Source: Saccharofermentanales bacterium (GTDB lineage Bacteria; Bacillota; Clostridia; Saccharofermentanales; DTU023). From it: a stretch of DNA of 64,000 bases. Made by a program: the position numbers and the translations under genes. The DNA lies in NCBI GenBank assembly GCA_050945515.1, contig JBMNTB010000004.1, positions 2,113-66,112 on the forward strand. Direction: 5' to 3'. Under the pieces are notes generated by a model. The model saw only the letters and a program-made list of their open reading frames with translations. It did not search any database and was not told the origin of the DNA. Positions within the stretch are counted from its first letter, which is position 1. The number at the start of each line of letters is the position of its first letter. Positions 5,351-48,879 of this stretch are shown here, piece by piece.

Positions 5351-6646
5351 GTGAAAATAGTGAAGCTGGAATTAGGGAAAATCCTGATTCAAGATGTTCA
5401 ATTCGGCGCTAAGACTGAAGTTGTAGACAGAACGCTGTTCGTGAACAAAGAGGAAATCATCGAACTTGTTTTGGAAGACGACAGGCTGATCGGCGCCGAT
5501 GTTGAACTGGCACGACCCGGTGAATCAGTCCGCATAGCTCCGGTCAAAGATGTAATCGAACCCCGGGTCAAAGTAACAGGAGGCGGTGCACTATTCCCCG
5601 GCATGATCAACAAAGTCGAACAGGTTGGCAGCGGCAGAACCCATGCTTTGGTAGGGGCAACGGTCATCACCTGCGGTCGGATTGTCGGCTTCCAAGAGGG
5701 TCTGATTGACATGTCCGGGCCGGCAGCCAAGTACTGTCCGTTTTCCGAAACAAATAATGTCGTTTTGGTAATTGAACCTGCAGATAATCTGGAGACTCAT
5801 GATTACGAAACTGCAGGCAGGCTGGCCGGGTTGAAAGTTGCTGCCTATATCGGCGAAGCAGGGAAAAATATCGAGCCGGATGAAGTTGTCGTCTATGAGA
5901 CGAAGCCCCTGCTGGAGCAGGCCTTGCAATATCCTGATCTGCCCAAGATCGGATATGTCCACATGCTTCAATCGCAGGGACTGCTGCATGACACCTATTA
6001 TTACGGTGTCGATGCCAAGCAGCTGGTTCCCACCTTTATGTACCCGACAGAGATCATGGACGGTGCTATTGTGAGCGGTAACTGCGTAGCACCTTGCGAC
6101 AAAGTTACTACTTTCCATCATCTGAACAATCCCATTATCGAAGATCTATTCGCAAGACACGGCAAAGATCTCAATTTTATGGGTGTTATCCTGACGAACG
6201 AAAATGTCTTTTTAGCAGACAAAGACAGATCCTCGGATATGACAGCTAAGCTCTGTGAATTCTTCGGTTTCGAAGGAGTTATTATTTCTGAGGAGGGCTA
6301 TGGCAATCCCGATACCGACTTAATGATGAACTGTCAGAAAGTCAGTCAAAAAGGTATCAAGGTGGTATTAATCACTGATGAATTCCCCGGCAGAGACGGC
6401 AAATCGCAATCTCTGGCCGATACCGTTGACGAAGCCGACGCACTGGTCTCTTGCGGCAACGGCAATGTAATTATTAATTTCCCGCCCATGGAAAAAGTCA
6501 TTGGCACATTGGATTTTGTTGAGACTATGATCGGTGGCTATGAAGGAAGTCTGAAGCCGGACGGCAGTATTGAAGCCGAGCTGCAGATTGTCATTGCCTC
6601 TACTATTGCCAATGGCTACAACAAGCTAGCCGCCAGAGGGCATTAA
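5351..6646 (+). CDS. grdE: Glycine/sarcosine/betaine reductase component B proprotein (GrdE/GrdG/GrdI family; substrate unresolved)
   Basis: ARPGESVRIAPVKDVIEPRVKV, GFQEG, SGNC (pyruvoyl-forming cleavage site) and EEGYGNPDTDL motifs. The symbol is family-level only. Confidence 0.9.
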   Translation: MKIVKLELGKILIQDVQFGAKTEVVDRTLFVNKEEIIELVLEDDRLIGADVELARPGESVRIAPVKDVIEPRVKVTGGGALFPGMINKVEQVGSGRTHALVGATVITCGRIVGFQEGLIDMSGPAAKYCPFSETNNVVLVIEPADNLETHDYETAGRLAGLKVAAYIGEAGKNIEPDEVVVYETKPLLEQALQYPDLPKIGYVHMLQSQGLLHDTYYYGVDAKQLVPTFMYPTEIMDGAIVSGNCVAPCDKVTTFHHLNNPIIEDLFARHGKDLNFMGVILTNENVFLADKDRSSDMTAKLCEFFGFEGVIISEEGYGNPDTDLMMNCQKVSQKGIKVVLITDEFPGRDGKSQSLADTVDEADALVSCGNGNVIINFPPMEKVIGTLDFVETMIGGYEGSLKPDGSIEAELQIVIASTIANGYNKLAARGH

Positions 6647-6656
6647 GGAGCGCAGT

Positions 6657-7967
6657 ATGAGTAAAATAAAAGCAGTTCATTATCTTAATCAATTCTTCGC
6701 TCAGATCGGCGGTGAAGAAATGGCCGATATTGAGCCAGAACTCCGGGAAGGGCTGATTGGGCCTGGCATTGCGCTTCAACAGGCCTTGGGTGCCGATTAT
6801 GAGATCGTAGCTACAGTAATCTGTGGCGATAACTACTTCGGCAGCAATCTGGAAGAGGCCCAAAGCAGAATTCTGGAACTGATTAAGCCCTACAGTCCGC
6901 AATTATTTGTAGCAGGACCCGCATTTAATGCCGGCAGATATGGTGTCGCTTGTGGTACAATCGCCACCGCCGTCGAAAAGGAATTTGGCATACCTGCCCT
7001 GACCGGCATGTATGTAGAGAATCCCGGCGTTGAAATGTTCAAAAAAGATCTTTATATCATTGAAACAGCAAATTCGGCGGCAGGTATGAGAAAGGCAATG
7101 CCGAAAATCGCCAATCTGGCCCAAAAGCTGATTAACGGTGATGAAGTAGGACCGCCCGCAGAAGATGGCTATCATGAGCGAGGAATCCGTGTCAATTATT
7201 TCCACGACAAAAGAGGATCTACCAGAGCTGTTGATATGCTGTTGCAAAAAGTCAAGGGGGAGGAATATCAGACCGAATATCCCATGCCATTCTTTGATCG
7301 TGTGCCTCCTGCCACACCGATTATAGACATGTCGAAGGCTAAAGTGGCCATTGTCTCTTCCGGCGGTATCGTACCGGTTGGCAATCCAGACCGGATTGAG
7401 TCCTCCAGTGCAACTAAATTCGGCAAATATGATGTCACCGGCATGGACCGCATGAGCAAAAACGACTTCATCTCCATCCACGGCGGTTATGATACTGCGT
7501 ATATTCTGGAGGATCCGAACCTGGCTATACCGCTCGACGTCCTCAGAGAAATGGAAAAAGAAGGTCAGATTGGAGAGTTAGCCAATTATTTCTACTCTAC
7601 TACAGGCACCGGTACTTCCGTTGGCAATGCCGAAGTCTTCGGTACTGAGATCGGCAAGCAACTGCTGGCGGATGGTGTGACCGCAGTCATTCTCACCTCT
7701 ACCTGAGGAACCTGTACACGTTGCGGTGCAACGATGGTTAAAGAGATTGAAAGATACGGCCTCCCTGTAGTTCACATGTGCACAATAGTACCCATTTCCC
7801 TAACAATCGGAGCTAATAGAATCGTACCTACTGTCGCCATCCCCTATCCTCTAGGTGATCCTCATCTCGGTGAAGAAAAGAGCAAGAATTTAAGACGCCA
7901 TCTGGTCGAAAGAGGGCTAGACGCCCTGCAGACAGAAGTCGACGGACAAACCGTTTTTGAAGAATAA
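6657..7967 (+). CDS. grdB: Selenoprotein B of glycine/sarcosine/betaine reductase (GrdB/GrdF/GrdH family), 436 aa with Sec at UGA 7704-7706
   Basis: HYLNQFFAQIGGEE N-terminus. ACC-TGA-GGA-ACC-TGT-ACA-CGT-TGC reads TSTUGTCTRCGATM (UxxCxxC motif) and runs in frame into the 7734..7967 ORF. The symbol is family-level only. Confidence 0.93.
7707..7740 (+). promoter_or_regulatory. Bacterial SECIS element
   Basis: Hairpin CGTTGC-GGT-GCAACG lies just 3' of the in-frame UGA, within the coding sequence. Confidence 0.75.
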
Positions 7968-8989: not shown

Positions 8990-9010
8990 TACTATGCATA
9001 AGGAGTGAAA

Positions 9011-9733
9011 ATGAAAGCTGATCCGGGCAATGAAATCGTACGCCGAGTCTATGCTGCTAAAACAGATAATGCGGAAGCAGATGACTTGATCGTGGATTAT
9101 ATGGGTTTCATCAAGGCAGAAACAGCCCGTCATTTGGGCCGTTTCTGTACGGATCAAGATGATGAACTCAGCATCGCCATGCTTGCTTTTTACGATGCCA
9201 TTCAGAAATATGATCACAATAGTGGTGCTTTTATCAGCTTTGCCGGCCAAATTATCAGAAACAGGCTGATCGATTATAGTCGGCGGGAAAATAGGCATCG
9301 CAAAGTGATCTCGCTGGATCAGCCGTTAGAACAAGACGCAGAAGGTGTGCCGACAACCATGGCAGATAGGCTCCCGGAACCGAAATCAGCGGATAGTGAG
9401 CTCCAGCAACAAGCGGCAGCTTCTGAGATCTCAGAACTAAAAACACAGCTTAAAGATTATGGTATATCGCTTGCGGATGTTGTTGATCAATCTCCCCGGC
9501 AAAAGCGCAGTCTCAAGATCTGTCAAGAGGCGGTCCGCTATGCCAGGGAACATCCGCAACTGATCCAAACCCTGTTGAAAACCCGCAAACTGCCTCTGAG
9601 CGAGCTTTCCAGCGGTGCCAATGTAGCACGAAAAACACTGGAACGCCATCGTAAGTATCTGATTGCCCTGCTACTGGTCTACAGCAACGGCTATGATAAT
9701 ATCAGAGACCACCTGAAGGCTATGACCCTGTGA
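9011..9733 (+). CDS. sigI: RNA polymerase sigma factor SigI
   Basis: DDELSIAMLAFYDAIQKYD...FISFAGQIIRNRLIDY region 2 and TLERHRKYLIA C-terminal signature; AGGAG RBS. Confidence 0.9.
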   Translation: MKADPGNEIVRRVYAAKTDNAEADDLIVDYMGFIKAETARHLGRFCTDQDDELSIAMLAFYDAIQKYDHNSGAFISFAGQIIRNRLIDYSRRENRHRKVISLDQPLEQDAEGVPTTMADRLPEPKSADSELQQQAAASEISELKTQLKDYGISLADVVDQSPRQKRSLKICQEAVRYAREHPQLIQTLLKTRKLPLSELSSGANVARKTLERHRKYLIALLLVYSNGYDNIRDHLKAMTL

Positions 9734-9749
9734 TAAATACGAGGCCAAT

Positions 9750-10772
9750 ATGAAATATTTAATCTTAGAATGTACTGAAAATGACGCTATTGCCCTCGAT
9801 GATGAGGGACGCTTCCTGCGTGTCGTCAATAATGATTATCAGGTGGGTCAAAAAGTTGAGCGGGTCACCTTATCACTGGCCAATAGCCGCAGACCGTCGA
9901 GGATAGTTTACTTTGCGCGCTCACTGTCTGCTGTGGCTGCTTCACTGATACTAGCCTTCTTCATTTATTATCTGATTGCTTTGCGCCCGGTCTCAACAAT
10001 TAATCTGGCAATCAATCCTGAAGTCACGATCAAATTAAATTCTCGGCACAAAGTCATCTCCCTCCAGGCCGAAAATCAAGATGCGGAAAATATAATTGCA
10101 GATTATTCCTATCGTGGCAAGACCGGGCATCAGGTGGTTTTGGATCTGGTCAGCGAATCGATCAGACAGGATTTCCTATCTGATGGCGGGAGAGTTTTAA
10201 TCACAGGCGACCTGTCCGGCAAAATCGTGGCAGAAGAATGGGCACATCAATTACAAAGTGATATCGACCGCCTTCTCTACCGCAACAACATCCATATTGC
10301 ACTCAAAATCGGTGTCTATGACCCCTCTCTGCGTTGGCTGGTCGATTATGCCTATGGACCTTTCGAGACCGAACCTGAGCCTGAAGAACCTACTAACCCC
10401 GAATCCGATTACAACAGTTCCTATGATGACGACGATAATACAGATAAGACCGGACATCAGGCAGACCCCGATTCTGACAGCACCTCGACCAAGCCGGCCC
10501 CAACACCTGATCGGACCAAGTCGACACCCGGGCAAACCAAGCCAACACCTAAGCAGACCATACCGGCCACATCACCTGTGACGACAAAACCTGCTCCGAA
10601 AGCGACGCCAACCACGGCTCCTACCAGCAGGCAGACTGCTGCACCAACATATGATGATGACGACACTGACTACGACGACCTCGATGATGACAACAACTAC
10701 GACGATCCCAATGATGACGACAGCGAATACGATGATCAGCCGGATGACGACAGTGAATATGATGATGACTGA
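9750..10772 (+). CDS. rsgI: Anti-sigma-I factor RsgI (RsgI_N, TM, periplasmic domain, Pro/Thr linker, acidic tail)
   Basis: N-terminal LDDEGRFLRV, one TM segment, and INP motif (AINPE). It lies immediately downstream of sigI. Confidence 0.85.
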   Translation: MKYLILECTENDAIALDDEGRFLRVVNNDYQVGQKVERVTLSLANSRRPSRIVYFARSLSAVAASLILAFFIYYLIALRPVSTINLAINPEVTIKLNSRHKVISLQAENQDAENIIADYSYRGKTGHQVVLDLVSESIRQDFLSDGGRVLITGDLSGKIVAEEWAHQLQSDIDRLLYRNNIHIALKIGVYDPSLRWLVDYAYGPFETEPEPEEPTNPESDYNSSYDDDDNTDKTGHQADPDSDSTSTKPAPTPDRTKSTPGQTKPTPKQTIPATSPVTTKPAPKATPTTAPTSRQTAAPTYDDDDTDYDDLDDDNNYDDPNDDDSEYDDQPDDDSEYDDD

Positions 10773-12008: not shown

Positions 12009-15000
12009 CTACATAATAGCGGCAGCCAGGCGCCGGCGCAGCATCTCGAGAGCATAGTCGATCTGTTCCGGTTTATGAGCCGAAGTCAGGCAATAGCGCA
12101 GCCTCGCCTGCCCCATAGGCACAGCCGGGAAGATAGCCGGCGGCACGATTATGCCGTCGTCCAGCATTTCGATACTGAGTTTGAAAGCCAGATCATCCGG
12201 CCCGATCATGATCGGTATAATCGCTGTATCCTTGGCCAGACAGGTATTAAAGCCATATTCGTGTGCCCGCTTCATGAAATAAGCGATATTGTCCTGGAGT
12301 GCTTTTACGCGGCTGTTATCCCTTTCCATGATTTCCAGCACTTTGAGCACGGCACCGGTCAGGGCGGGACTAAGTCCGACCGAGAAAGTAAAGCCCGGCA
12401 GATTATAGCGCAGATAGTCAATCAACAGTTTATCCGCTGCCAGATAGCCGCCGCAAGCGCCAAGACCCTTGGACAGAGTTCCCATCTTGATGTCAATATC
12501 CGAGGGGGCAAGATCGAAGTATTCGTCCACACCTTTGCCGGTCTCACCCAATACACAGGCCGAATGCGCCTCATCAACCATCAGGAAACAGCCGTATTTC
12601 TTTTTGATCCGCACAAATTCGGGCACCGGAGCGACATCTCCATCCATGCTGTAGGCACCTTCAACTACGATCAGCACTTTCTCATATTCATCGCGGTGCT
12701 CCTTGAGGAAATTCTCCAACTCTTCATAGTCATTATGAGGGAAGAACCGGCTCCTGGCCCGCGAGAGCATAAGACCCTGAATCACAGAATTATGACTCAG
12801 CCTGTCATAGATAATCAGATCGCCGGACCCGCAGAAATTGCCCACGAAAGTAACATTGGTAGCATGTCCGCTGACCAGGACCAGAGCATCCTCCGTACCC
12901 TTCCAGCGGGCGATCGCAGCCTCGAGGTCTTTATGGATATCTTTTTCGCCGGCAAGCAGCCTGCTGCCGCTGGCCGAAGTACCGTATTTCTCTACTGCTG
13001 CAATCGCAGCAGCATTGACCTCGGGATCGCCCGACATAGCCAGATAATTATATGACCCCAGATTGATCATTTCGCGCCCGCCCATATAGGATACATCCTT
13101 AAGAGCAGATTCTTGCGAAATGAAATAGGGATTTTGCATATTGCTGCTGGCCAGCAACTGTTCAGAACGTTGGACAAATTGCTTAATTTCTCTGATTTTT
13201 TCGAAGGCGTCAACTCGCTCTTCCGGCGTCTTCGCCCGCCCGTCCGTGCTGATGCCGGCTTTCCTTCCCGGCTTATAATCTGTACCGGACAGGTGTTCAT
13301 GGATAAGTGATGTAATATCATTGAGATTCATGCAGCTATAATACTGATCATCAACGATGGCAATATTGTATTCGCGCTCCAAGAGATTGAGCAAAGTCAG
13401 GCTGGAGAGACTGTCTCCGCCCAGATCGAGCACAAAATGCCCGTTATCTGTGACTTCTTCCAGCTTAATATCCAGTGCTTCGGCAAAGAAACCGCGGATA
13501 GTTTCCTTGATTTTTTCTTTACTAATGGTGTCGGCATCGGCCTTGGCGCCGCTTTCCGTATCCGGAGCAGGTTCAGCTTTGTCGGCTGCTCCCACTGCCG
13601 CCGGCGGCGGGGCAGTCGGCACCTCCGGGATCGCAGCCTGTTGGTCAGATGATATAGTCATGCCGGCAGCCTTCGCTTCCAAATACCGGGATAGAGTGAG
13701 TACCGGCCACTGTCCGGCGTTCAATTGTTTGGACAGCAGCTGACGCTTAACTTTCCTGGTGGTGGAAAGCGGTAGCGGTGCGAGACTAACCAGCACATTG
13801 CTGATGGCAGAGGATGGCGGCAATTTAACCATGCGAGCTTTTACCGCCTGGTCCAGTTCAGCCGGGTCGGCCTCAGGAGCCACTTCGAGCAGCAGATTGG
13901 CATATTCATAGTCGCCGTCCCGCACGCCGACGACAGACATTTGTTGTACGCCGGGCAAATCCTGGAAATTCGCTTCGACGGTGTCGGGATAGATATTTTC
14001 TCCCGAGGGCCCGATAATTACCTCTTTCAGACGACCATCAATCATGATAGCGCCATCAACCAAGCGCCCGATATCACCGGTGGGAAACCAGCTATCACCC
14101 GTGTAATCTACTGCCCGGAATTGGCCGCTCTTGAGCACACCGATATGGATGCTGCGTCCGCGCAGCAGGATTTCACCTGCGGGTGAGATCATCATATTGT
14201 CAGGTTCAAAGGGACGGCCGACATTGCCATTGCAGCGCAGGTCAATATCTTCCGTATTGCAGACTGAGATAATGCTGCCTTCTGTCATCCCGTAACCGGA
14301 ACTGAGATAGTAGCCTAAGCCATTGATGACGCGCAGCGTCTGAGCGGGAATATAGCCACCGCCGCTACAGCCGAGATAAACATCATCACCTAACAGTTGA
14401 TTGCGAATGGACTTAAGTTTCGGAGCATAATAAAAAGGCACTTTTCTGCCTGCCGCTTGGGCTTTAAGGCTGGCATCGATCATCTTGTCGAAAGCAGCTA
14501 CGGTTTTCTCACCTTCTATCTGGCGGATCCGGCGATAAAGTCCCTTGACCACCGCATTCCAGAACAAAGGTATGCTGATCACCTGGGTGACCCGATGCTT
14601 GCGACAGCTCTCCAGAATTACTTCCGGGGCCAGACTGGGAATGAAAATAAAGGTATTGCCGAGCACATAGGTCAGCATAAATACCGCCATCAGGCCGAAT
14701 ATATGGTGGAAAGGCAGGAATGCCAGGCATTTCTCATTCACTCCCGGCCGCACCCAGCGGTCTGTCTGATCGGAAAGCCTGATCAGGCAGGTAGCTAGAT
14801 TTAGAATACAGCCGCTGTCATGGACAAAGATCCTCGCATCCCCGGTAGTGCCGCTAGTGCAAAGAGCGATTCTGTCGCCCCAGCTTGTTTCCTCCGGAAA
14901 GCTGTCTGCTTCAGCGATCAGATCGGCAGCGGCCAGATAGGCAAAATCCTCATACAGCTTATCCGTGATCAGGGTTTCAGTGCCGGCTTGGGCCATCATT

Positions 15001-15329
15001 TCAATGGCATCATCCGTATTCTGCATTGAATTGAGCAAGAGCAAATCAAAGCCGGCAGCTAGGATGGCCCAAAACAAAATACAAAATTCAGGACCGTTGG
15101 GCAGCTTGAGGGCGACAAATTTTTCTTCGCTCTTAACCACTTCACGAATTTTTCCGGCACAGCCCATAACTTTCCGTTCATATTCCTCGTAGGAAAGCTG
15201 GACTAATTGCTCCTGCTTATAATATTCAAAAATATTCTTGCCACGGCCATTACGCATCATCATAGCGAAAAGATCGGCAAAATCTTGTGATACTTTCAAA
15301 TCATGTATCAGTTTTTCAATTACATTCAT
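12009..15329 (-). CDS. Tri-domain fusion: long-chain acyl adenylation (AMP-binding) domain + acyl carrier protein + PLP-dependent alpha-oxoamine synthase (SPT/BioF family)
   Basis: A-domain motifs CTSGTTG, YGMTEG, TGDIG and GENIYP. ACP motif LGGDSL (Ser codon 13410-13412). AOS motifs LGSYNYL, GSRLLAG, DEAHS and GTLSK (Lys codon 12468-12470). GAGGTG RBS before ATG 15329. Confidence 0.9.
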   Translation of the reverse strand: MNVIEKLIHDLKVSQDFADLFAMMMRNGRGKNIFEYYKQEQLVQLSYEEYERKVMGCAGKIREVVKSEEKFVALKLPNGPEFCILFWAILAAGFDLLLLNSMQNTDDAIEMMAQAGTETLITDKLYEDFAYLAAADLIAEADSFPEETSWGDRIALCTSGTTGDARIFVHDSGCILNLATCLIRLSDQTDRWVRPGVNEKCLAFLPFHHIFGLMAVFMLTYVLGNTFIFIPSLAPEVILESCRKHRVTQVISIPLFWNAVVKGLYRRIRQIEGEKTVAAFDKMIDASLKAQAAGRKVPFYYAPKLKSIRNQLLGDDVYLGCSGGGYIPAQTLRVINGLGYYLSSGYGMTEGSIISVCNTEDIDLRCNGNVGRPFEPDNMMISPAGEILLRGRSIHIGVLKSGQFRAVDYTGDSWFPTGDIGRLVDGAIMIDGRLKEVIIGPSGENIYPDTVEANFQDLPGVQQMSVVGVRDGDYEYANLLLEVAPEADPAELDQAVKARMVKLPPSSAISNVLVSLAPLPLSTTRKVKRQLLSKQLNAGQWPVLTLSRYLEAKAAGMTISSDQQAAIPEVPTAPPPAAVGAADKAEPAPDTESGAKADADTISKEKIKETIRGFFAEALDIKLEEVTDNGHFVLDLGGDSLSSLTLLNLLEREYNIAIVDDQYYSCMNLNDITSLIHEHLSGTDYKPGRKAGISTDGRAKTPEERVDAFEKIREIKQFVQRSEQLLASSNMQNPYFISQESALKDVSYMGGREMINLGSYNYLAMSGDPEVNAAAIAAVEKYGTSASGSRLLAGEKDIHKDLEAAIARWKGTEDALVLVSGHATNVTFVGNFCGSGDLIIYDRLSHNSVIQGLMLSRARSRFFPHNDYEELENFLKEHRDEYEKVLIVVEGAYSMDGDVAPVPEFVRIKKKYGCFLMVDEAHSACVLGETGKGVDEYFDLAPSDIDIKMGTLSKGLGACGGYLAADKLLIDYLRYNLPGFTFSVGLSPALTGAVLKVLEIMERDNSRVKALQDNIAYFMKRAHEYGFNTCLAKDTAIIPIMIGPDDLAFKLSIEMLDDGIIVPPAIFPAVPMGQARLRYCLTSAHKPEQIDYALEMLRRRLAAAIM

Positions 15330-15407
15330 AAAACACCTCAAAGAAAGCCCTGCAGCTTACTGTACACACGGCAGACTATTTCTGCCGTCAACAGCTAAGC
15401 GTCAGGA

Positions 15408-16424
15408 CTATTTGTTTAGATACTCCAGATGAACATCAGCCCACAATCCAGGAGTTCCGCCTGTATGAATAAAAATGGCGGTATCGTCGGCAGTAGCTTC
15501 TTGTGCCAGAAAATCCAGGAAAGCTCTGGCTGCCTTACCGGTATAACAGGGATCGAGAAAAATTGCTTCCGTAATGGCAAATGTTTTCAGGGCAGAGTAT
15601 GTCTTGTCATCCGGGATATTGTAGCCGAGCCCTGTATAAGGCTCCGTTGCCGGTCCATAATCAAGTACAAAGTCCTGCTCTGATGCGATAATGTCATTGC
15701 GACCCAGCAACTCCGCCGCTTGCTGTATGAATTGCAGAATCCGTTCAGGCAGATTGATGTTCCCGGCCGGTATTACGGGAATGCCGCGGATCTGCAACTG
15801 ATCCAGCCCTACCAGCTTTGCTCCCAGTGCTATACCTGCCAGTGTGCCGCCTGAACCCGCAGCGACAAAGAGATGGGTCGGAGTAATGCCGCTCGTCTTA
15901 ATCTGCTCTGCCAGTTCCACCATCATCAGCACATAGCCCAGTGTGCCCAGAGCGTTACTGCCACCCATCGGAATCACAAATACTTTATGACCGGCTGCCT
16001 CATATTCGGCGATGATTTCTTCGACATAAGTTCTCTTATGCCTATCTGCCACAAAGCGCAGATCAGCGTCCAGGAATTGATCCAAAATCAAATTGCCGCT
16101 AAGGCGCTCCGGGGCCTCGCCATCCAAAACCAGAATAGATTTCAGGCCATAACGCGCCGCCACAGCCGCTGTCAGCCGGCCATGATTGGTCTGCGGACCG
16201 CCGAAAGTCAGTAAAGTATCTGCCCCGGCGTCCAGAGCCGCGCACAGATGAAACTCCAGTTTCCTGATCTTGTTACCGCCCAGACCGACATCGGTCAGGT
16301 CATCCCGCTTAATCCAAAGTGATGGTATACCATGCTTAGAACCCAAGCGGGAGAGTTGCTGGAAAGGTGTCGGGAAATTCCCGATACGAATCCTCTGTCC
16401 CAGCACCTCTGTATACTTAATCAT
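15408..16424 (-). CDS. D-cysteine desulfhydrase / ACC deaminase family PLP enzyme (desulfhydrase-type residues)
   Basis: WIKRDD, GGNKIRKLEF (PLP Lys), SGGTLAG. It has LDPCYTGKA and IHTGG rather than the ACC-deaminase YEGKS/HLGG. GGAGG RBS before ATG 16424. Confidence 0.88.
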   Translation of the reverse strand: MIKYTEVLGQRIRIGNFPTPFQQLSRLGSKHGIPSLWIKRDDLTDVGLGGNKIRKLEFHLCAALDAGADTLLTFGGPQTNHGRLTAAVAARYGLKSILVLDGEAPERLSGNLILDQFLDADLRFVADRHKRTYVEEIIAEYEAAGHKVFVIPMGGSNALGTLGYVLMMVELAEQIKTSGITPTHLFVAAGSGGTLAGIALGAKLVGLDQLQIRGIPVIPAGNINLPERILQFIQQAAELLGRNDIIASEQDFVLDYGPATEPYTGLGYNIPDDKTYSALKTFAITEAIFLDPCYTGKAARAFLDFLAQEATADDTAIFIHTGGTPGLWADVHLEYLNK

Positions 16425-16770
16425 AATTCCTCCTACGTCTGTTTGCTTGTCCTTGCAGATTTTACAACGGGGAACCACCCCCCCTCATCAGTGCCAAATC
16501 GCATAAGAACACAGAATCGTAAACTTTTAATGATTATAACATGTTCGAAATTGTTAATTGAAAAATTACTGTTAATATCAGATCACTATTAATGATCAGT
16601 ATGATCCGGAACTACGCGCCATAAGAAAATACCACCGTGACCGCAGCCGATTGCTCTCTCAGTTATAATAGTTGGAAATTAGCTCGTGACAGGAAAATTA
16701 TAACGGTGAACGGGACGGACAAGTATTAAACAGGCATTTTTTTTGCTTGAGAGGAATGGTTTAGAATATC

Positions 16771-22490: not shown

Positions 22491-24347
22491 CTATGCTTCT
22501 GTCTCGATACTTTCAAGGGGATGGCGCGGACAATTGTCCGGCAAAGAAACAGTTACCTCGTTACTGCGAATTCTGGTATCCCGCGGCAGACGGAATTCCT
22601 CCCGATAAGATTCGTACATCTTCCTAAAACCGGTACCATCCTGCTTGACCTGTGCCAGATATTCATGTGTATTCAAACCATCAGCATGAATCTCAATCAT
22701 GGAGATAGCAATATTGCTGCAGTGATCCGCCACACGCTCCATACTGGTCACCAGATCGGAGAAGATAAAGCCCAGCTCCAGTGTACAATCTCCATAAGTC
22801 AGCCTGGCAATATGCCTGGCTGTCAACTCATCATTGAGACGGTCAATGACCTCTTCCAGAGGCTCCACCTGTACAGCAATATCGATATCGTCCTCCCTTA
22901 AAGCAGTTACGGCAAGATTGATACATTTAATCAGTGCCGCCTTATATACTGCCAACTCAGTCCGGGCATTATCCGAGAAACGCATTTTCTTTTCGTGCAT
23001 TTCAGCCGCAGCATGGACGAGATGGATGGAGTGATCGGACATTCTTTCCAATTCACTGATATTATGCAGCCAGATGGCGATCGTTTTATATTCATATTCT
23101 GTCAGCTCACGCGAGGATAACTTGACCATATAGGTACCGAGCCTATCTTCATAGCGATCAACCAGACCCTCCAATGCGGTCACTTCGACAAAGCCCTCAT
23201 GGTTATAATCTTCCAGCATAGCCAGAGCAGCATATAGTCCTTGCAGAGTTTTATCGATCATATCGCTGCCCAGTTTTTTAACCTGCTCCACGGCCAGAGC
23301 GGGTGTCTCCAGGAAGCGCTCATCCAGTAGCTTGAAGCGCTCTTCGATCTGGCTGGCTATTCGATCTTCTTCAGCATCCGGAACCAATTTGTGCGTCAGC
23401 TTTTCCATTTGATCGACAAAGGGCAGGAACATAATCGTACCGAAAATATTGAAGAGCGAGTGGATGATGGCAATGCCAACCGGAGCTATCTCATCGTTTA
23501 AGAAACTAAATTTGAAAATTGCATTGAGTGCATAGAATCCAGCGAGAAAGACGCAGGTTCCAATGGTATTAAAAGACAGATGGAAGATCGCCACGCGACG
23601 GGCATTGCGATTGGCTCCTACGGAAGAAATCAAGGCCGTAACAGTGGTGCCGATATTCTGACCCAAAATGATAGGAATTGCCGCCCCATAAGAAACCAGA
23701 CCGGTGCTAGCCAAGGCCTGCAAGATACCGACCGAGGCAGAAGATGACTGAATAATCGCTGTCAGCACAGCACCGACCAGAACGCCGATAATCGGATTGG
23801 AAAAGAGTAAAAACAGATTGCGGAAGGCTTCCACTTCGGCCAGGGGTGATACTGAAGCAGACATGGAATCCATGCCGTACATTAAGATAGCAAAGCCCAA
23901 CAAAATTCTGGCGATATTATGTTTTTTCTCATTCTGGGTAAACATGATAAAAATCACGCCGACGATGGCCATGATCGGCGTAAAGGACTCAGGATTCAGC
24001 ATGCGCACTAAGAGATTACTGCTTTCAATGCCAACTAAACTGAGAATCCAAGCAGTGATGGTAGTACCGATATTGGCGCCCATGATGACCGGAATCGCAT
24101 TGCGAAGCCTGATAATACCCGCATTGACCAAGCCAACCAGCATTACGGTTGTAGCGGATGATGACTGGATGATGGCAGTAATGCCTGCTCCCAGCGCCAC
24201 CCCTTTAATGCGATTTGAGGTCAGACTTTCCAGTATCGATTGTAATTTTGAGCCCGACAATCTGGTCAGTCCGACACTCATCAGATTCATACCGTAGAGA
24301 AAGAGTGCCAGACCCCCTACCAGTGACAGAACGCTAAATAAATCCAT
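22491..24347 (-). CDS. Na+/phosphate cotransporter with C-terminal PhoU-like domains
   Basis: Repeated QSSSA motifs, GANIGTT and GQNIGTT, and ERMSDH/ERVADH PhoU repeats. Confidence 0.93.
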   Translation of the reverse strand: MDLFSVLSLVGGLALFLYGMNLMSVGLTRLSGSKLQSILESLTSNRIKGVALGAGITAIIQSSSATTVMLVGLVNAGIIRLRNAIPVIMGANIGTTITAWILSLVGIESSNLLVRMLNPESFTPIMAIVGVIFIMFTQNEKKHNIARILLGFAILMYGMDSMSASVSPLAEVEAFRNLFLLFSNPIIGVLVGAVLTAIIQSSSASVGILQALASTGLVSYGAAIPIILGQNIGTTVTALISSVGANRNARRVAIFHLSFNTIGTCVFLAGFYALNAIFKFSFLNDEIAPVGIAIIHSLFNIFGTIMFLPFVDQMEKLTHKLVPDAEEDRIASQIEERFKLLDERFLETPALAVEQVKKLGSDMIDKTLQGLYAALAMLEDYNHEGFVEVTALEGLVDRYEDRLGTYMVKLSSRELTEYEYKTIAIWLHNISELERMSDHSIHLVHAAAEMHEKKMRFSDNARTELAVYKAALIKCINLAVTALREDDIDIAVQVEPLEEVIDRLNDELTARHIARLTYGDCTLELGFIFSDLVTSMERVADHCSNIAISMIEIHADGLNTHEYLAQVKQDGTGFRKMYESYREEFRLPRDTRIRSNEVTVSLPDNCPRHPLESIETEA

Positions 24348-24462
24348 GCAACTCCCTCAACAATGCCGCTCAATAATGGTCTCCCTTATTCAGCCTGCGC
24401 ATAGCAAATAATCCCATAAAAAGACGGACGAAAATAATTTCCCCGTCTATTCCCTCTAATAG

Positions 24463-24523
24463 CTTACACAAAATTAACATTAGTCGCTAGTCAATTTTAC
24501 CTGATGCTGATAAAGAATTTACA
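24463..24523 (+). promoter_or_regulatory. Putative PhoP-box array
   Basis: CTTACA 24463, TTAACA 24474, TTTACC 24496 and TTTACA 24518 all lie in an 11-bp phase, upstream of the Na/Pi transporter. Confidence 0.45.
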
Positions 24524-24774
24524 TTTATGGTGAAATCAATCATGAACCGGCCCTGATTGCTTATTGCCTTGATCAAAACTCCTAATCAACGGAAACGCAA
24601 TTGGAATTAAAACAATTAATGAATTATTGCGGCAGCTAATTAAAGGCCGCCAGCGGCAGCTGAAGCGCTTGCGCTCTAAATAGGCTATAATTTGGGAATA
24701 TTCATATAATATAATTAGGGACGGCGGCTGATTGCTGTTCGATTTTGATCATAAACTGACAGGAGCGGGAGATA

Positions 24775-25812
24775 ATGCAAGAACTACTGGATAATATGGC
24801 ACAGAAAGCTTTAGCGGTACTCGGCGAGGTCAAAACCGAGGCTGAGCTGCAAAAAATCACTCAGCAATATCTGGGCAAAAACGGTGAGCTGACTGCAGTT
24901 TTAAAAGGATTGGGAGGGCTGGAACCCGAGGCCAGAAAAACTACCGGCCAGGCAGCCAATCAAGTCAAGCTGATGTTGCAGACAGAGATCGAAGCCAAAA
25001 AGATTGAACTTAGCAATAATGCCCCGGTTCTCGATCATCAATATGATCTGACTTTGCCCGGGATCAAACCACCGGCCGGCGGCCTGCATCCGATTACTCA
25101 GATGTGTTACGATCTCAACGATGCTTTTTTATCTCTCGGTTTTGTTCTCTTTGCCGAGGATGAGATCTCCAGCGAATTATTCGCCTTTGACCATCTCAAC
25201 TTCCCTCCCGATCATCCGGCCCGGGAATCCATGGACACTTACTGGCTGGCCGGCACAGCAGACCTGTCCGGCGGCTCCAGACTCTGCCTGCGTCCCCACT
25301 TGACCGGAGCCAGTGTCAGATATTTGAAAGCGAATGGTGCGCCGGCACGCTTTGTCTATCCCGGCCGCGTCTACAGGAATGAAGCCACTGATGCCCGTCA
25401 CGAGCGCGCCTTTTTCCAATATGAGGCTTTGATCGTTGAGAAAGATTTTCCCTTTGCTTCCGGACGCTTGCTGATCGACACGATTCTGGAAAAAGTTTTT
25501 GGTCACAAGGTCAAGACCAGAATGCGAGCCGGATTCTTCCCCTTTGTGGAGCCGGGATTTGAGATCGATATGGAATGCCAAGTCTGTGGCGGCGTCGGCT
25601 GCCGTGTCTGCAAAAATGTCGGCTGGATTGAAGTTATGCCCGGCGGCACACCGCATCCGAATGTGTTGCGAGCTGCCGGTCTGAATCCGCGGGAGTGGAG
25701 CGGCTTCTACATTAATATCGGTCTCGACCGGCTGGTAATGATGCGCTATGGCGTCGACGATGTCCGTCTGTTCCACAGCGGTGACCTGCGCTTCCTGTCG
25801 CAGTTCAGTTAA
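24775..25812 (+). CDS. pheS: Phenylalanine-tRNA ligase alpha subunit, atypical amino-acid pocket
   Basis: N-terminal coiled coil, HP, HPAR, motif 2 GRVYRNE, FPFVEP, CxxC zinc finger, motif 3 GLDRL, DLRFLSQF end. Many pocket residues are substituted. Confidence 0.85.
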   Translation: MQELLDNMAQKALAVLGEVKTEAELQKITQQYLGKNGELTAVLKGLGGLEPEARKTTGQAANQVKLMLQTEIEAKKIELSNNAPVLDHQYDLTLPGIKPPAGGLHPITQMCYDLNDAFLSLGFVLFAEDEISSELFAFDHLNFPPDHPARESMDTYWLAGTADLSGGSRLCLRPHLTGASVRYLKANGAPARFVYPGRVYRNEATDARHERAFFQYEALIVEKDFPFASGRLLIDTILEKVFGHKVKTRMRAGFFPFVEPGFEIDMECQVCGGVGCRVCKNVGWIEVMPGGTPHPNVLRAAGLNPREWSGFYINIGLDRLVMMRYGVDDVRLFHSGDLRFLSQFS

Positions 25813-25921: not shown

Positions 25922-28354
25922 ATGAAAATTTCATTGCAGTGGATTGGTGATTATGTTGATTTGAGCGATCTGGCACCGGAAGAGATTGCATATGAACTGA
26001 CGATGCGGACGGTCGAGGTGGAGGACATTCATAGCCAGGAGCAGGCATACGAGAAGATTGTTGTCGGCCTGATCCGCGAGCTGAAGCCGCATCCCAATGC
26101 CGATAAGCTCCGAATTGCAGTGGTCGATGTCGGCGCTGAGGAAGAGGCCACGATTGTCTGCGGGGGCAGCAATCTCTATGAGGGGCAGCGGGTGGTAGTC
26201 GCACTGCCGGGATCATATGTGAAATGGCATGGCGAAGGCGAACCCGTTGAGATCCGCAGCACTAAGTTGAGAGGCGTTGCGAGTGCTGGAATGATCTGTG
26301 CTTCTGAAGAGCTGGAATTGGAAGAACTGTTTCCGGCCCACAGCGAAGCAGAGATTATCGATCTCAAGGATTTTGATCTGTCTGCCGGCATGCCTCTGGC
26401 TCAGGCACTGCAACTGAATGATGTGATTTTAGAGATCGACAATAAATCGCTGACCAACCGCCCTGATCTCTGGGGGCATTACGGTATCGCCCGCGAACTG
26501 GCTGCTATTTTCAAACGGGACCTAAAACCCCTGTCCGAGTTCAAATTAGACCCGGCGCTGCGGGATAATGCAGCGGCTCTGCCGATTACCATAGAGGCTC
26601 CTCAGCGCTGTTCACGCTATGCCGGCTTGATCTTCAGCGGTGTTGATTCCCGCCCGGCACCCTTCTGGATGCAGGCCCGACTGCATGCCGCCGGCATGAG
26701 TCCGCACAATTGCCTGATCGATATCACCAACTATGTCATGCTGGCAACCGGCAATCCGACACATGGCTTTGACCGCCGCTTTGTAGAAAACGAGATTATT
26801 GTCAGAGAGGCCAGATCCGGCGAAACACTGGAATTGCTGGACGAAACCTTTCTGGAGCTGACTACGGAGGATCTGGTGATCTGTGATGCCGTAGAACCGA
26901 TGGCGCTGGCCGGCATCAAAGGCGGCAAAAAAGACTCCCTGCATGATGACACCACAGAGCTGGTGCTGGAGGTGGCGACCTTTGATGCCCTGAGCATCAG
27001 ACAGACTGCCCAGCGCTTTAATGTCCGTACCGAAGCTTCGGCCCGCTTCGAAAAAGCTTTGGATACTCAGCGGGTTGACCGGGCGATCGCTCTGGCCTGC
27101 GACCTGATCTTTGAGTATTTCCCGCAAGCGAAGTTGCTGGGCTTTTCGGATGCCGTCACCGATACAACTGAAGCCGCAACCATCGAAGTCGAGATCGAGG
27201 ATTTGACCAGGAGCCTGGGGCAGGAAGTGTCCTCCCGGGAAGTAAAGGCTCTGCTGACTGACCTGGGCTTTGAGGTCAGCGGTACTTCCGTACTAACAGT
27301 CACGGCTCCGAGTTGGCGCTCCACCGGCGATATTGAAGAATTCTGCGATATCGTGGAGGAAGTGGCGCGTCTGATAGGCTACGAGAACTTTAACTTTATT
27401 CCGCCGCGGGTGACACTGGAGAAAGCAGTCAAACAGGATCACTTTGCCCTGGAGAGAAGAATCCGCGAATATTTGGCTTTCCGTTGCGGCTTCCGGGAAA
27501 TTTTTACTTATCCCTGGGTAGCAGATGATCTGTTGGCAGCCACAGGAATTGATGCTGACGAAATGCTGAGCCTGGAGCAGCCGCCTGCGCCGGACCAAGC
27601 CAGGCTAAGATCGAGCTTGGTACCGGGTCTGCTGGGCAATGCCAGGGCCAATCTGCGCTATGTCGATGATCTGCGGGTATTCGAGCTGGCTCAGGTATTT
27701 CGGTCCGGACAGACGGTCGTTTCCGATCCTGCTGAGAAACTGCCCCGCCAAGAGCTCAATTTGGCCGCTGCTATCGTTGACGGCAGCGACAGAGGTGTTG
27801 AAATTTTCCGTGAGCTCAAGGGTGTACTGGAAGAGCTGCCCCGCTATACCGGCGCTGAGCCTTTTAGTTTCAGCTCTGTCCGAAAACCAAGCTGGGCAGA
27901 TGATGCAGTCTGGTTGAATCTGACCACTGCCACCGGCAATATTATCGGCAATCTGGGACTTGTATCCAGGAAAGCTCTGAATGGCGCCAATATCAAGAGA
28001 GTACAGATGGCAGTCTGTGAATTGTATCTGAATAAATTGCTGCCTTTGCCTAGCAGAGACAATATCTACCAGCCTCTGCCCCACTACCCGCTGGTCGAGG
28101 AAGACTTTGCGCTGGTAATTGACGAGACAGTATCCTGGGAACAGATCAGTGCGATTGTGGCACCCATGGTCCGCGATCTGTACTTCGTCGAAGAATACCG
28201 CGGCGCTCAGATCCCGGCCGGAAAAAAGTCATTGCTCTTCCATGTCCTGCTGGGATCAGATCAGGCGACCCTCTCGACAGAACAGATAGCCGGCAAGCGC
28301 GCTGCCATCATCAAACAACTCAATAAGCATCTGGGAGCAGAACTGCGTCAATAA
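25922..28354 (+). CDS. pheT: Phenylalanine-tRNA ligase beta subunit
   Basis: HPNADKL, TNRPDLWGHYGIARE, B3/4 domain, SARFEK, EEVARLIGY and C-terminal FDX-ACB domain. Confidence 0.92.
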   Translation: MKISLQWIGDYVDLSDLAPEEIAYELTMRTVEVEDIHSQEQAYEKIVVGLIRELKPHPNADKLRIAVVDVGAEEEATIVCGGSNLYEGQRVVVALPGSYVKWHGEGEPVEIRSTKLRGVASAGMICASEELELEELFPAHSEAEIIDLKDFDLSAGMPLAQALQLNDVILEIDNKSLTNRPDLWGHYGIARELAAIFKRDLKPLSEFKLDPALRDNAAALPITIEAPQRCSRYAGLIFSGVDSRPAPFWMQARLHAAGMSPHNCLIDITNYVMLATGNPTHGFDRRFVENEIIVREARSGETLELLDETFLELTTEDLVICDAVEPMALAGIKGGKKDSLHDDTTELVLEVATFDALSIRQTAQRFNVRTEASARFEKALDTQRVDRAIALACDLIFEYFPQAKLLGFSDAVTDTTEAATIEVEIEDLTRSLGQEVSSREVKALLTDLGFEVSGTSVLTVTAPSWRSTGDIEEFCDIVEEVARLIGYENFNFIPPRVTLEKAVKQDHFALERRIREYLAFRCGFREIFTYPWVADDLLAATGIDADEMLSLEQPPAPDQARLRSSLVPGLLGNARANLRYVDDLRVFELAQVFRSGQTVVSDPAEKLPRQELNLAAAIVDGSDRGVEIFRELKGVLEELPRYTGAEPFSFSSVRKPSWADDAVWLNLTTATGNIIGNLGLVSRKALNGANIKRVQMAVCELYLNKLLPLPSRDNIYQPLPHYPLVEEDFALVIDETVSWEQISAIVAPMVRDLYFVEEYRGAQIPAGKKSLLFHVLLGSDQATLSTEQIAGKRAAIIKQLNKHLGAELRQ

Positions 28355-45873: not shown

Positions 45874-46644
45874 CTATGTGTTGCGGAATCTGGCCAGGAA
45901 ATCGATTGTTTCCTGCCGCTTTGGATTCCCGAATATTTCCTCCGGAGTGCCGGATTCATGGATAACGCCTTCGTTCATAAAAAATACTTGACTGCTAACA
46001 TCGCGGGCAAAGGCCATTTCATGTGAGACAACCAACATAGTCATGCCCTCATTGGCCAGATTTTTCATGACCGCAAGCACCTCGCCTACCGTCTCCGGAT
46101 CAAGAGCCGAGGTCGGCTCATCGAACAGCAATAGATCCGGGTCCATCGCCAGAGCGCGGGCAATCGCCACCCGCTGCTGCTGACCACCCGAGATCTGACG
46201 AGGTTTGGCATCGATATAGGGAGCCATACCCACTTTATCCAGAAGCTCAAGAGCGTATTGTTTGGCCTGATCGCGACTGCGTTTGAGCACTCGCACCTGT
46301 CCGACCACACAGTTCTCCAACACAGTCAAATTTTTAAACAGATTGAACGACTGGAAGACCATGCCGACATGCGAGCGGTATTTGGTCGCATTGACTCCCG
46401 GTGCCAATACATTGACACCCTTGTAGATAATTTCGCCGCCTGTCGGCGTTTCCAGCAGGTTGATGCAGCGCAGCAAAGTCGATTTGCCCGAGCCGGAAGC
46501 ACCGATCACGCTGATCACATCACCCTGGTAGACATCGAAATGAATATCCTTCAGAACCTTATTATTGCCGAATGCTTTCGACAGGTGATCAATTTGCAGA
46601 ATTGGCTGGGAACGGGAATTATGCTCATTATTGTTATTTGCCAT
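45874..46644 (-). CDS. Polar amino acid ABC transporter ATP-binding protein
   Basis: [33 protein letters not shown]. Confidence 0.95.
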
Positions 46645-47473
46645 CTCGCTCTAACTCCTTGCTGCGTTCGGCTAAATGTTCGCCCTTGCCGGGATGTCTG
46701 TACGTACCGGCCACCATCACAAGCTGATCGGCGGCAGCCAGCTCGTAACTGGCATCGCCCTCCAACTTCTTTTCAATCCGGCGCAGAATGAAAGATGAGA
46801 TCAGTGTCACAGTAAGATAACCGATCATCTCAATCGTGGCCGAAGGAAAAAAGAGATAATTTGCTCCCGAGGCCGACCTGTGAGCGGCAAAAAAGTCCGG
46901 AAAGCCGATGACGAACATTACCGAAGTGTCCTTGACATTGATAATAAAGTTATTGCCAATCTGGGGCATAATATTGCGCAGCGCTTGCGGCAAAATTACG
47001 GAGGTCATGGTCTGAAAGTGATTCATACCGATAGCCTTTGCGCCCTCGGTCTGTCCCGGGTCGATCGAAATAATCCCGCCGCGGACCGATTCCGCCATAT
47101 AGGCCCCCGTATTGATTGAGACAACCAGAATGGATGCCACCCAGATACTATCGAATCTATGCTGCAGATTCGTCACATACGGCAAACCATAGAAGATAAA
47201 GACCGCCTGCAACATCATGGGCGTACCCCGAAAAACTTCAACATAGATCCTGATCACAACCCGGATCAGTTTCAGGACAAATCTTTTGGGCAGAGGGTCT
47301 TTTTTCGTGTAGGGAATTGTGTTCAGAACACCGCAGGCAAAGCCGATCAGACAACCGATCGCCGTCGCGACCAGCGCCAGAATCAGCGTAGAGCGGATAC
47401 CCCTGAGATACACATCGCCGAATTTATCCCACAGTTTTTCTATATCCTGTATTAATTGTGCCAATTTTCCCAT
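46634..47473 (-). CDS. Polar amino acid ABC transporter permease
   Basis: [30 protein letters not shown] and NVKDTS motifs. Confidence 0.95.
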
Positions 47474-47561: not shown

Positions 47562-48560
47562 CTATTCTTCACTCAAAGGCTGAATTTTGATCGCATCTTC
47601 CATCATGGTATTGAAATCATCTTCGGTCATGGTGCCAAGCACATTGTTCAGCGCCGTCAGGAGAACGGCATTGCCTTTCATGACTGAAATACCGATATTG
47701 ACATTCTCTGCTCTGACTTCGTCCGAGAACTGGAAATCGCCGTCCGTACCCGAGAAGTCCAGAATTTTCATCTCCGGATAGGCAACCACGGCACCCTGGG
47801 CTGTCGGCAGATCAGTGCAGACAAAGTCCACAGTACCGGTCGCCAGTGCCATCAACATGGCCGGCACGTCCGAAGACTTCAGCGGGATTTCGATATCGGG
47901 GATCTGCGGCAGACACTGATCAAACCAAATCGTACCTTCTTGAGCCGTACCTCTGCCGCCCGCCAGATCGGCGATGCCCTGGGCAGCAGCAAACTTACTA
48001 TCTTCTCTGGTCAACACTACCATCGTGGCATAGAAATAAGGTCCGGCGAAATCCACCTGTTCAGAGCGCTCGGCTGTCATGGACTGGCCGGCAATAACTG
48101 CGTCAAAAGTACCTGTCATCACGCCCGGTACCAGTGAATCCCAATCGGACTGTATAATCTCCAGCTCCCAGCCATTGGCTTCACAAAGTATCTTGGCCAT
48201 CATCACATCATAGCCATTGGCAAAAGCGCCCGGTGAATTGCTGATCGGCACTGCACCATTGGAATCATCCTGCTGTACCCAATTGTAAGGCGCATAGGCA
48301 CATTCCATCGCGACAGTCAGAACACCGTCCTCAACACCTGTGGGCACGCTCTGAGCTTCCGGTGCAGTCGTCTCAACGCCTTCTGCCTCAGTGGTTTCCT
48401 CCGCCTCTGCTGCAGTGGTATCCTCCTGTTCAGCTTCTGCGCCGGCGGTGGCTTCGACTTCCGCCTCTGTAGCTGCTTCAGTCGCAGCAGAATCTGACTT
48501 CCCGCAAGCTACCAACGCCAACAACATCACTACTGCGAGAAATAAAGCAATCTTTCTCAT
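47562..48560 (-). CDS. Polar amino acid (probably lysine) ABC transporter substrate-binding lipoprotein
   Basis: Lipobox LVAC, Ala/Glu/Thr linker, ECAYAPYNW and GYDV motifs; downstream of a lysine riboswitch. Confidence 0.9.
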   Translation of the reverse strand: MRKIALFLAVVMLLALVACGKSDSAATEAATEAEVEATAGAEAEQEDTTAAEAEETTEAEGVETTAPEAQSVPTGVEDGVLTVAMECAYAPYNWVQQDDSNGAVPISNSPGAFANGYDVMMAKILCEANGWELEIIQSDWDSLVPGVMTGTFDAVIAGQSMTAERSEQVDFAGPYFYATMVVLTREDSKFAAAQGIADLAGGRGTAQEGTIWFDQCLPQIPDIEIPLKSSDVPAMLMALATGTVDFVCTDLPTAQGAVVAYPEMKILDFSGTDGDFQFSDEVRAENVNIGISVMKGNAVLLTALNNVLGTMTEDDFNTMMEDAIKIQPLSEE

Positions 48561-48660: not shown

Positions 48661-48699
48661 CATGGAAATCGGATAATATTCGATCAGTGCCGATGCCAT

Positions 48700-48861
48700 C
48701 GATAGCGCTCCACAAAAGCTTGTGACAGTTCGTCAGATCTTATCTGCCGACCCAGCTCCGGAAAATCAGGCCCTCTTCCGAAACTTCGGCGATTTCCCCT
48801 TTTATATCGACGGTGACCTGCCTTGCCGATAGTACTCTTGAAAACCGCGCCTCTACCTAAA
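48700..48861 (-). ncRNA. Lysine riboswitch (L-box)
   Basis: The minus strand reads GTAGAGGCGCG...AAGAGTA...AAAGGGG..GCCGAAG...CTGGG...ACTGTC...GGAGCGCTA, the conserved L-box core in the correct order. Confidence 0.9.
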
Positions 48862-48879
48862 GCGATTCAATTTCGTGCA

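Follow-up and report, generated by a model that had tools for sequence, protein, structure and literature searches.

A 64,000-nt stretch of contig JBMNTB010000004.1 from a Saccharofermentanales bacterium (hereafter, the window) carries a pheS gene whose product, numbered here from the protein encoded at 24775..25812, resembles a phenylalanyl-tRNA synthetase (PheRS) alpha subunit in fold and partner but differs from it in the pocket that receives the amino acid. This protein is most likely the alpha subunit of a genuine (alpha-beta)2 PheRS and, together with the product of the adjacent pheT, the housekeeping PheRS of its organism. Compared by sequence, the two subunits belong to a distinct and widely distributed lineage in which both have diverged together, and the variant enzyme would be expected to activate Phe and to charge tRNA-Phe.

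Identity of the Two Subunits

The two genes are separated by 109 bases and are as follows:

24775..25812, plus strand: pheS, PheRS alpha subunit of the lineage with a Tyr-x-Asn (Y-x-N) pocket; a 345-aa open reading frame (ORF) assigned by Pfam and NCBIfam profiles and by matches to solved PheRS alpha chains.
25922..28354, plus strand: pheT, beta subunit of 810 aa, assigned by TIGR00472 and five Pfam domains.

The window PheS scores 234.7 bits against PF01409 (tRNA-synt_2d) and 61.5 bits against PF02912 (Phe_tRNA-synt_N, the N-terminal coiled coil), and TIGR00468, the NCBIfam equivalog, is by far its best-scoring NCBIfam family. A PDB sequence search matched PheRS alpha chains at 2e-74, every top match in Foldseek and phmmer was PheRS alpha, and an AlphaFold2 model with a mean predicted local distance difference test (pLDDT) score of 74 supports the PheRS fold and the motif 3 strand. 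The window PheT reaches 600 bits against TIGR00472, above the cutoff of 402.65, and contains the five domains tRNA_bind, B3_4 (editing), B5, tRNA_synthFbeta (core-like), and FDX-ACB (anticodon-binding). Two other PheRS types were rejected for the window PheS, namely the archaeal/eukaryotic-type alpha subunit (NF003210; 138.4 bits vs. 350) and the mitochondrial enzyme (TIGR00469; 65.8 bits vs. 258).

It has been proposed for other aminoacyl-tRNA synthetase (aaRS) paralogues that they act outside translation, and a PheS-like protein engaged in regulation or small-molecule ligation could in principle account for the divergent lining of the active site; the SrmL family in NCBIfam shows that such PheS-related offshoots exist. 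For the window protein this is scarcely credible: it scores only 99.6 bits against the SrmL ligase profile (NF051887; cutoff 300) and was rejected as a member, it keeps the full N-terminal coiled coil and invariant catalytic motifs, a complete pheT partner is constant, and the loci of its relatives lie among translation genes. SrmL shares the PheS-like class II core, to which the window protein adds the PheS N-terminal domain and the pheT partner.

Amino-Acid-Binding Pocket

The segments that line the active site of the window PheS are the following:

25291..25314, plus strand: RPHLTGAS, residues 173–180, replacing RT(H/Q)TSPVQ; His is kept, Ser is changed to Thr, and Gln to Ser.
25363..25383, plus strand: motif 2, GRVYRNE, residues 197–203, with the catalytic Arg; unchanged, with R201, N202, and E203 invariant in the clade.
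25411..25428, plus strand: FFQYEA, residues 213–218, replacing FxQxEG; Gln and Glu, which hold the amino group of the substrate, are retained, with Ala in place of Gly.
25534..25557, plus strand: FFPFVEPG, residues 254–261; the ring-stacking FPF motif and the Val are kept.
25576..25611, plus strand: zinc-knuckle insert CxxC...CxxC (Cys268/271/276/279), invariant in the clade and aligned with the insert of 4p71 and 2rhq.
25630..25659, plus strand: EVMPGGTPHP, residues 286–295, replacing E(V/I)LG(C/A)GMVHP, with Pro289 for Gly.
25702..25722, plus strand: GFYINIG, residues 310–316, motif 3 strand, with Tyr312/Ile313/Asn314 for E. coli Ala294/Phe295/Gly296.

All the motif strings and pocket changes quoted in the initial annotation are present in the 345-aa ORF, each at the residues given for it. 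Its placement of Tyr312 and Asn314 at E. coli Ala294 and Gly296 is borne out by gap-free HMMER alignments to solved alpha chains (4p71 from P. aeruginosa, 2rhq from S. haemolyticus, and 7n8y), in which the two residues fall on the Ala and Gly of GFAFGMG; residues 308–316 form a beta strand in the AlphaFold2 model. The pocket is atypical, as had been claimed, at nearly invariant positions: among 105 canonical representatives, the equivalents of Ala294 and Gly296 are Ala in 100% and Gly in 99%. The change is not confined to these two residues, as 13 positions are at least 90% fixed in the clade (n = 195) and occur in at most 5% of the canonical proteins (n = 105); in T. thermophilus numbering, the clade-fixed changes include T177P, T179L, Q183S, G221A, L233G, G282P, A314Y, F315I, and G316N. 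P174, L176, and S180 are found in 100% of the clade and in no more than 5% of canonical PheS, and P289 is likewise found in 100% of the clade, at a position where canonical PheS has Gly in 95%. The numbering was mapped through the E. coli and T. thermophilus sequences, and it reproduces the published positions A294/T251 and A314/F258/H178/Q218. At the sequence level, the pocket substitutions are a signature of the clade and not noise.

Around these changes the catalytic apparatus is kept. GRVYRNE and GLDR are invariant among the 50 clade members compared, and GLDRL is intact in the window PheS. His175, Thr177, Gln215, and Glu217 are also invariant in the clade, Thr177 being a conservative change from Ser; the alpha-amino group of the substrate is held in T. 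thermophilus by His178, Ser180, Gln218, and Glu220. The zinc-knuckle insert, by its alignment, is an ordinary one common to the P. aeruginosa and S. haemolyticus enzymes. Behind or across the motif 3 strand, smaller residues are found (Phe to Ile313, Leu to Gly230, and Phe/Leu to Ile237), and the facing loops carry Gly to Pro289, Met-Val to Thr-Pro, Thr to Leu176, and Gln to Ser180 (TSPVQ to LTGAS and GxGMV to PGGTP). Replacement of Ala294 by Ser or Gly changes the specificity of E. coli PheS, and the effect of position 294 on para-substituted Phe analogues was reportedly described by Kast and Hennecke (1991) and by Ibba et al. (1994). It has been reported that A294G alters the specificity of E. 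coli PheS and that position 294 sets the size limit for para-substituted Phe analogues (PMC7136838).

Extent and Phylogeny of the Lineage

About 195 relatives with the pocket signature were collected from Clostridia, Tissierellia, Synergistaceae, RF39 Bacilli, Treponema, Sumerlaeota, Dadabacteria, and Methylococcales. The best 120 database matches are 68–99% identical to the window PheS, and all of them carry the GFY(I/V)N(I/V)G-type, LRPHLTG(A/G)S, and F(F/Y)QYEA motifs. When one genome per GTDB species was scanned, at least 584 stretches were confirmed, and 80 variant loci were kept for analysis; these come from Clostridia (Christensenella, Oscillospiraceae, Saccharofermentanales, Fastidiosipila, and Mageeibacillus), Tissierellia/Peptoniphilaceae (Khoudiadiopia and Murdochiella), Synergistaceae, Treponema, Sumerlaeota, and RF39-like Bacilli/Mycoplasmatota. 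A further search added 35 clusters with the full signature at 50–66% identity, including metagenome-assembled genomes (MAGs) labelled Methylococcales and Dadabacteria. The lineage is present in at least seven phyla at 59–73% identity. Pairwise identity within the clade is at least 59% (median 70%), as against 29–46% (median 36%) with canonical representatives; canonical Oscillospiraceae PheS is about 38% identical to the window PheS, and the nearest PheS outside the clade among 1.84 billion representatives, with those of the candidate phyla radiation included, reach 40–43%. Such tight identity across phyla points to horizontal transfer.

The beta subunits show the same separation. Partner PheT proteins are 46–60% identical to each other across phyla and 27–30% identical to the PheT of canonical Tissierellia operons; since the PheT partners have diverged too, the whole enzyme, and not the alpha pocket alone, forms a separate lineage. 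The initial annotation had called for an examination of the phylogeny and distribution of proteins with these motifs, and this yielded, besides the shared signature of the roughly 195 relatives, neighbor-joining trees of PheS and of PheT that group the taxa alike, in the same coherent blocks of Synergistaceae, RF39 Bacilli, Tissierellia, Treponema, Saccharofermentanales, Fastidiosipila, and Christensenella. The lineage is found on contigs of 1.53 Mb and 1.86 Mb and in the reduced genomes of RF39-type Bacilli. No published description of a Y-x-N PheRS lineage was found in the literature, with the motif strings included among the search terms, and the lineage is apparently both large and undescribed.

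One orphan PheS, P0130, carries a partial signature, with GVAINFG (Ala kept and Gly changed to Asn), RPQITQTV, and ELFPGGPIHP. The proteins nearest to it share just 45–48% identity and include both full-signature and canonical types; P0130 itself, from a contig of 2,370 bp, is a singleton, and with relatives of such mixed types it was rejected as an intermediate between the canonical and variant forms.

Beta Subunit and Editing Site

A full-length pheT lies directly 3' of the variant pheS in every locus where the contig reaches that far. The editing domain of the window PheT is located as follows:

26609..27121, plus strand: B3/4 editing domain of PheT, placed by alignment to the E. coli chain 3pco_B.

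In this alignment, Asn270, His281, Glu350, Thr370, and Ala372 of the window PheT correspond to Asn254, His265, Glu334, Thr354, and Ala356 of the E. coli beta subunit. The first four of these are kept in 76 of 76 partner PheT proteins; at the fifth, 62 of the 76 have Ala and 14 have Ser. The editing site of canonical PheRS removes Tyr-tRNA-Phe, and these beta-subunit residues are reported (Roy et al. 2004) to form the site that hydrolyzes it. Conservation of the editing residues implies that the mistake made by the alpha site, and the tRNA on which it is made, are still the usual ones.

A divergent member on a 306-kb contig of JGI 3300072015 (locus P0442) has three small ORFs between pheS and pheT, one of which is an AbiEii-family toxin gene; pheT is followed there by an intein-carrying gyrB and then by secE-nusG.

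T-Box Control and tRNA Genes

The region 5' of the window pheS is the following:

24348..24774, plus strand: divergent intergenic region 5' of pheS, with neither a T-box nor a recognizable leader.

The absence of a T-box here, which the initial annotation had pointed out, was confirmed, with none at the Rfam gathering threshold and none credible at E<=10 over 24340–24800. Elsewhere in the lineage, the 80 loci include 27 with a T-box immediately 5' of the variant pheS, and 12 of these T-boxes reach the Rfam gathering score. The specifier was read as the triplet that precedes the conserved purine at the close of the specifier loop; it is UUC plus a purine in all 27, and read in this way the T-box of the canonical Anaerococcus pheS also has UUC. 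It follows from the 27 UUC specifiers that the operon of these relatives is switched on by uncharged tRNA-Phe. No Phe-rich leader peptide was found 5' of the Methylococcales copy, where a 34-codon ORF is not rich in Phe. In RF39-like Bacilli (L070, 1454–3015; L072, 3631–5195; L074, 5475–7041), the order is T-box(UUC), small ORF, pheS, and pheT; the small ORF encodes a conserved protein of 95 aa with no assigned function (MNYKIDYLLRY...) and overlaps the start of the variant pheS.

These data bear on the possibility that the protein is a PheRS-derived enzyme that loads a different or non-canonical amino acid onto tRNA, such as a Tyr-like or polar aromatic one read by the Tyr/Asn pair. The changes of Ala to Tyr and Gly to Asn do introduce polar groups into the floor of the ring pocket, with a loose likeness to the reading of the phenolic hydroxyl by tyrosyl-tRNA synthetase, and the TIGR00468 score lies below the cutoff. 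Such a change of substrate is nevertheless very unlikely: the T-box specifiers are all UUC and so sense tRNA-Phe, the anticodon-binding domain and the editing site are conserved, and FPF and the residues that bind the amino group are kept. If the enzyme were the sole PheRS, a new substrate would mean recoding all Phe codons, and the conserved Phe positions of the window pheS itself are still encoded by TTC or TTT. A dedicated tRNA is also missing; a check for linked tRNAs, as the initial annotation had advised, found no tRNA gene in the window and, in the 80 loci, no tRNA-Phe or unusual tRNA, only three incidental downstream tRNAs (two Thr and one Ala). The initial proposal of a paralogue that uses another substrate or acts outside translation is not supported, given the UUC T-boxes, the pheT partner with its editing site, the ancestral chromosomal slot described below, and coherent inheritance that extends to genomes of 1.5–1.9 Mb. 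Altered sensitivity to a Phe analogue or inhibitor, the other option in that proposal, may still apply, and would then belong to a housekeeping enzyme and not to a spare copy.

Chromosomal Position and Mobility

The pheST slot between infC/rplT and mutS2 is the classical neighbourhood of these genes in E. coli and B. subtilis. Anaerococcus sp. NML200574 (L085) has a canonical pheS (RPHTSSMQ, FHQLEC, and GFAFGLG) within infC-rpmI-rplT-trmH-[T-box]-pheS-pheT-zapA-U32 peptidase-mutS2; a Tissierellia MAG (L087) with thrS...infC-rpmI-rplT-trkH-trkA-trmH-pheS-pheT-zapA-U32-mutS2 also has a canonical pheS. The same slot holds the variant pheST in Khoudiadiopia massiliensis (L066) and in loci L055, L067, and L078. 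Writing pheS* for the variant gene in these orders, a Ndongobacter-type locus (L094) reads hisS-thrS...infC-rplT-SpoU-yitT-pheS*-pheT-zapA-mutS2-argS, and Synergistaceae have thrS-infC-rplT-trkH-trkA-pheS*-pheT-zapB-like-x-cvpA-mutS2. With the variant in the ancestral slot and the canonical operon missing there, an extra, added copy would not be expected at that place. No second pheS was found in the window or in any of the 13-kb loci.

Among 72,556 plasmids, no variant was found at 60% identity or above, and only canonical PheS was met, at up to 42% identity. Canonical pheS occurs on the PLSDB records NZ_OY725743.1, NZ_AP023421.1, OY725857.1, and NZ_CP154629.1 (Monoglobus, Pusillibacter, Subdoligranulum, and Acetoanaerobium; up to 2.6 Mb); these records, filed as plasmids, probably represent chromosome fragments or chromids instead.

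Several observations weigh against the reading of the window pheST as the housekeeping enzyme. The window's own locus lies outside the rplT/zapA synteny, since infC, rplT, trmH, zapA, and mutS2 were looked for in the window and none is present; for this reason the positional argument rests on relatives that are 64–72% identical. That the window's organism has no second, canonical pheS is a point that we infer. The window PheS scores 217.9 bits against TIGR00468 and so misses its cutoff of 237.45. Tyr and Asn at positions that set specificity make normal binding of Phe non-obvious. Members of the clade resemble each other unusually closely (at least 59% identity) given the range of phyla they cover, and this, like the Methylococcales locus described next, would also fit a mobile and possibly supplementary gene pair. 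In marine Methylococcales contigs (L088 and L089, 7535–17026), the variant pheST lies between cytochrome c/xseB/ispA and a Tn3-family transposase and not at rplT; it is in a variable region, and its 5' flank differs between the two contigs. This pheST may be an island-like insertion, whether as a replacement or as an added second PheRS.

A further possibility is an auxiliary second PheRS, kept beside a canonical sensitive one because its rebuilt pocket resists a natural Phe analogue or a PheRS inhibitor, in the manner of IleRS2 and mupirocin. T-box control is also known for backup aaRS copies; the spread over at least seven phyla suggests horizontal transfer, and the pocket changes sit exactly where analogue specificity is set. 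In addition, cultured Methylococcales PheS carry the canonical Ala (PMC7136838), and the variant adjoins the Tn3 transposase in that order. An auxiliary copy is nonetheless improbable for the lineage as a whole, because the variant has taken the ancestral pheST slot in Tissierellia, Ndongobacter, and Synergistaceae where the canonical operon is missing, the taxa form coherent groups on which the PheS and PheT trees agree, the lineage occurs in genomes of 1.5–1.9 Mb and in reduced RF39 genomes, plasmids lack it, and neither a biosynthetic cluster nor a mobile element adjoins pheST within the window. It keeps some weight owing to the inferred single-copy status and the Methylococcales copy beside Tn3.

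Proposed Mechanism and Origin

For a housekeeping PheRS of this lineage, the alpha subunit would bind ATP and Phe, form Phe-AMP, and pass Phe to tRNA-Phe held by the beta subunit, whose B3/4 site would clear Tyr-tRNA-Phe. Tyr312 and Asn314 are predicted to face the ring pocket from the motif 3 strand (predicted strand 308–316), and this strand may be shifted back so that Tyr and Asn form the floor of the pocket rather than filling it. A handful of ancient horizontal replacements, with vertical descent thereafter, would account for the spread of the lineage.

By analogy with IleRS2 and mupirocin, it is also conceivable that this is a "type 2" PheRS whose Tyr/Asn pocket resists a mimic of Phe (such as meta-tyrosine, Phe bearing a halogen or a hydroxyl group, or a microbial PheRS inhibitor), and that resistance drove its spread over at least seven phyla, where it would have displaced the canonical operon in place or been added as an island, as beside Tn3 in Methylococcales; we regard this as a tentative idea that is rather unlikely to be right.

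Comparison with Known Systems and Significance

The canonical (alpha-beta)2 PheRS structures (E. coli 3PCO, T. thermophilus 1B70/1B7Y, P. aeruginosa 4P71, and S. haemolyticus 2RHQ) resemble the variant enzyme in the domains of both subunits, the class II motifs, FPF, the His/Gln/Glu residues for the amino group, the zinc-knuckle insert, the editing residues of the beta subunit, and the pheS-pheT operon, and relatives of the window gene share with canonical PheRS the T-box(UUC) control and the chromosomal neighbourhood. The canonical enzymes differ in that they lack the 13 clade-fixed changes clustered in the pocket, A294Y, F295I, and G296N (E. coli numbering) among them. Engineered pheS* alleles (A294G and T251A/A294G) are likewise altered at E. 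coli position 294; however, they enlarge the pocket with a smaller residue, whereas the variant lineage carries a larger Tyr together with Asn, naturally fixed and with compensating changes elsewhere. IleRS1/IleRS2 and MetRS1/MetRS2 are two-type bacterial synthetases that have spread by horizontal transfer. The likeness to these systems lies in a second, internally conserved form of a synthetase that occurs across unrelated phyla with active-site differences, sometimes in the native slot and possibly sometimes as an added copy; unlike in the IleRS2-type case, a resistance phenotype and coexistence with a canonical form are hypothetical for the variant PheRS.

In bacteria, archaea, eukaryotes, and mitochondria alike, Ala294 and Gly296 (E. 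coli numbering) of the PheRS pocket are regarded as fixed, and they underlie pheS* counterselection markers, the incorporation of non-canonical amino acids, and the design of PheRS inhibitors. If the lineage works with Tyr and Asn, it would represent a second structural solution for recognizing phenylalanine; the A294G/T251A recipe could then not be transplanted to members of the lineage, among which are many anaerobes of gut and biogas origin, and the spectra of analogues and inhibitors may differ for a sizeable share of the anaerobic microbiota. Should the pocket also confer resistance to a natural compound, it would provide the first example on record for PheRS. As the TIGR00468 cutoff is missed, genomes of the lineage may look as if they lacked pheS in marker-based completeness or phylogenomic pipelines.

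Other Features of the Window

The neighbours of the window pheST are ordinary and comprise a Na/Pi cotransporter, an ECF S component, a DUF4143 ATPase, and an oligopeptide ATP-binding cassette (ABC) system. Further upstream, a pair of genes for component B of glycine/sarcosine/betaine reductase (grd) lies at 5351–7967 on the plus strand. Its GRDB ORF (6657–7706; 565 bits) stops at an in-frame TGA, with the reading ...TSTUGTCTRCGATMV... and a frame that stays open to 7967, and an Rfam SECIS_4 element (64 bits; 7707–7744) begins directly after this TGA; the TGA with SECIS_4 right behind it therefore indicates a selenocysteine protein that ORF callers truncate. Directly 3' of the grd genes are a sigma-70 family factor and then an RsgI-like anti-sigma factor (9005–10772, plus strand).

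On the minus strand, 12009–15341 encodes a 1109-aa fusion of an AMP-binding domain (fatty-acyl-AMP ligase-like), a phosphopantetheine carrier, and a class I/II aminotransferase (alpha-oxoamine-synthase-like), adjoined by a PALP enzyme at 15408–16478; the two look like a small lipid or amino-lipid biosynthetic module, with no link to pheST seen. A lysine riboswitch (101.6 bits; 48695–48863, minus strand) lies 5' of an amino-acid ABC transporter made up of a solute-binding protein (47562–48560), a permease (46634–47473), and an ATPase (45874–46644).

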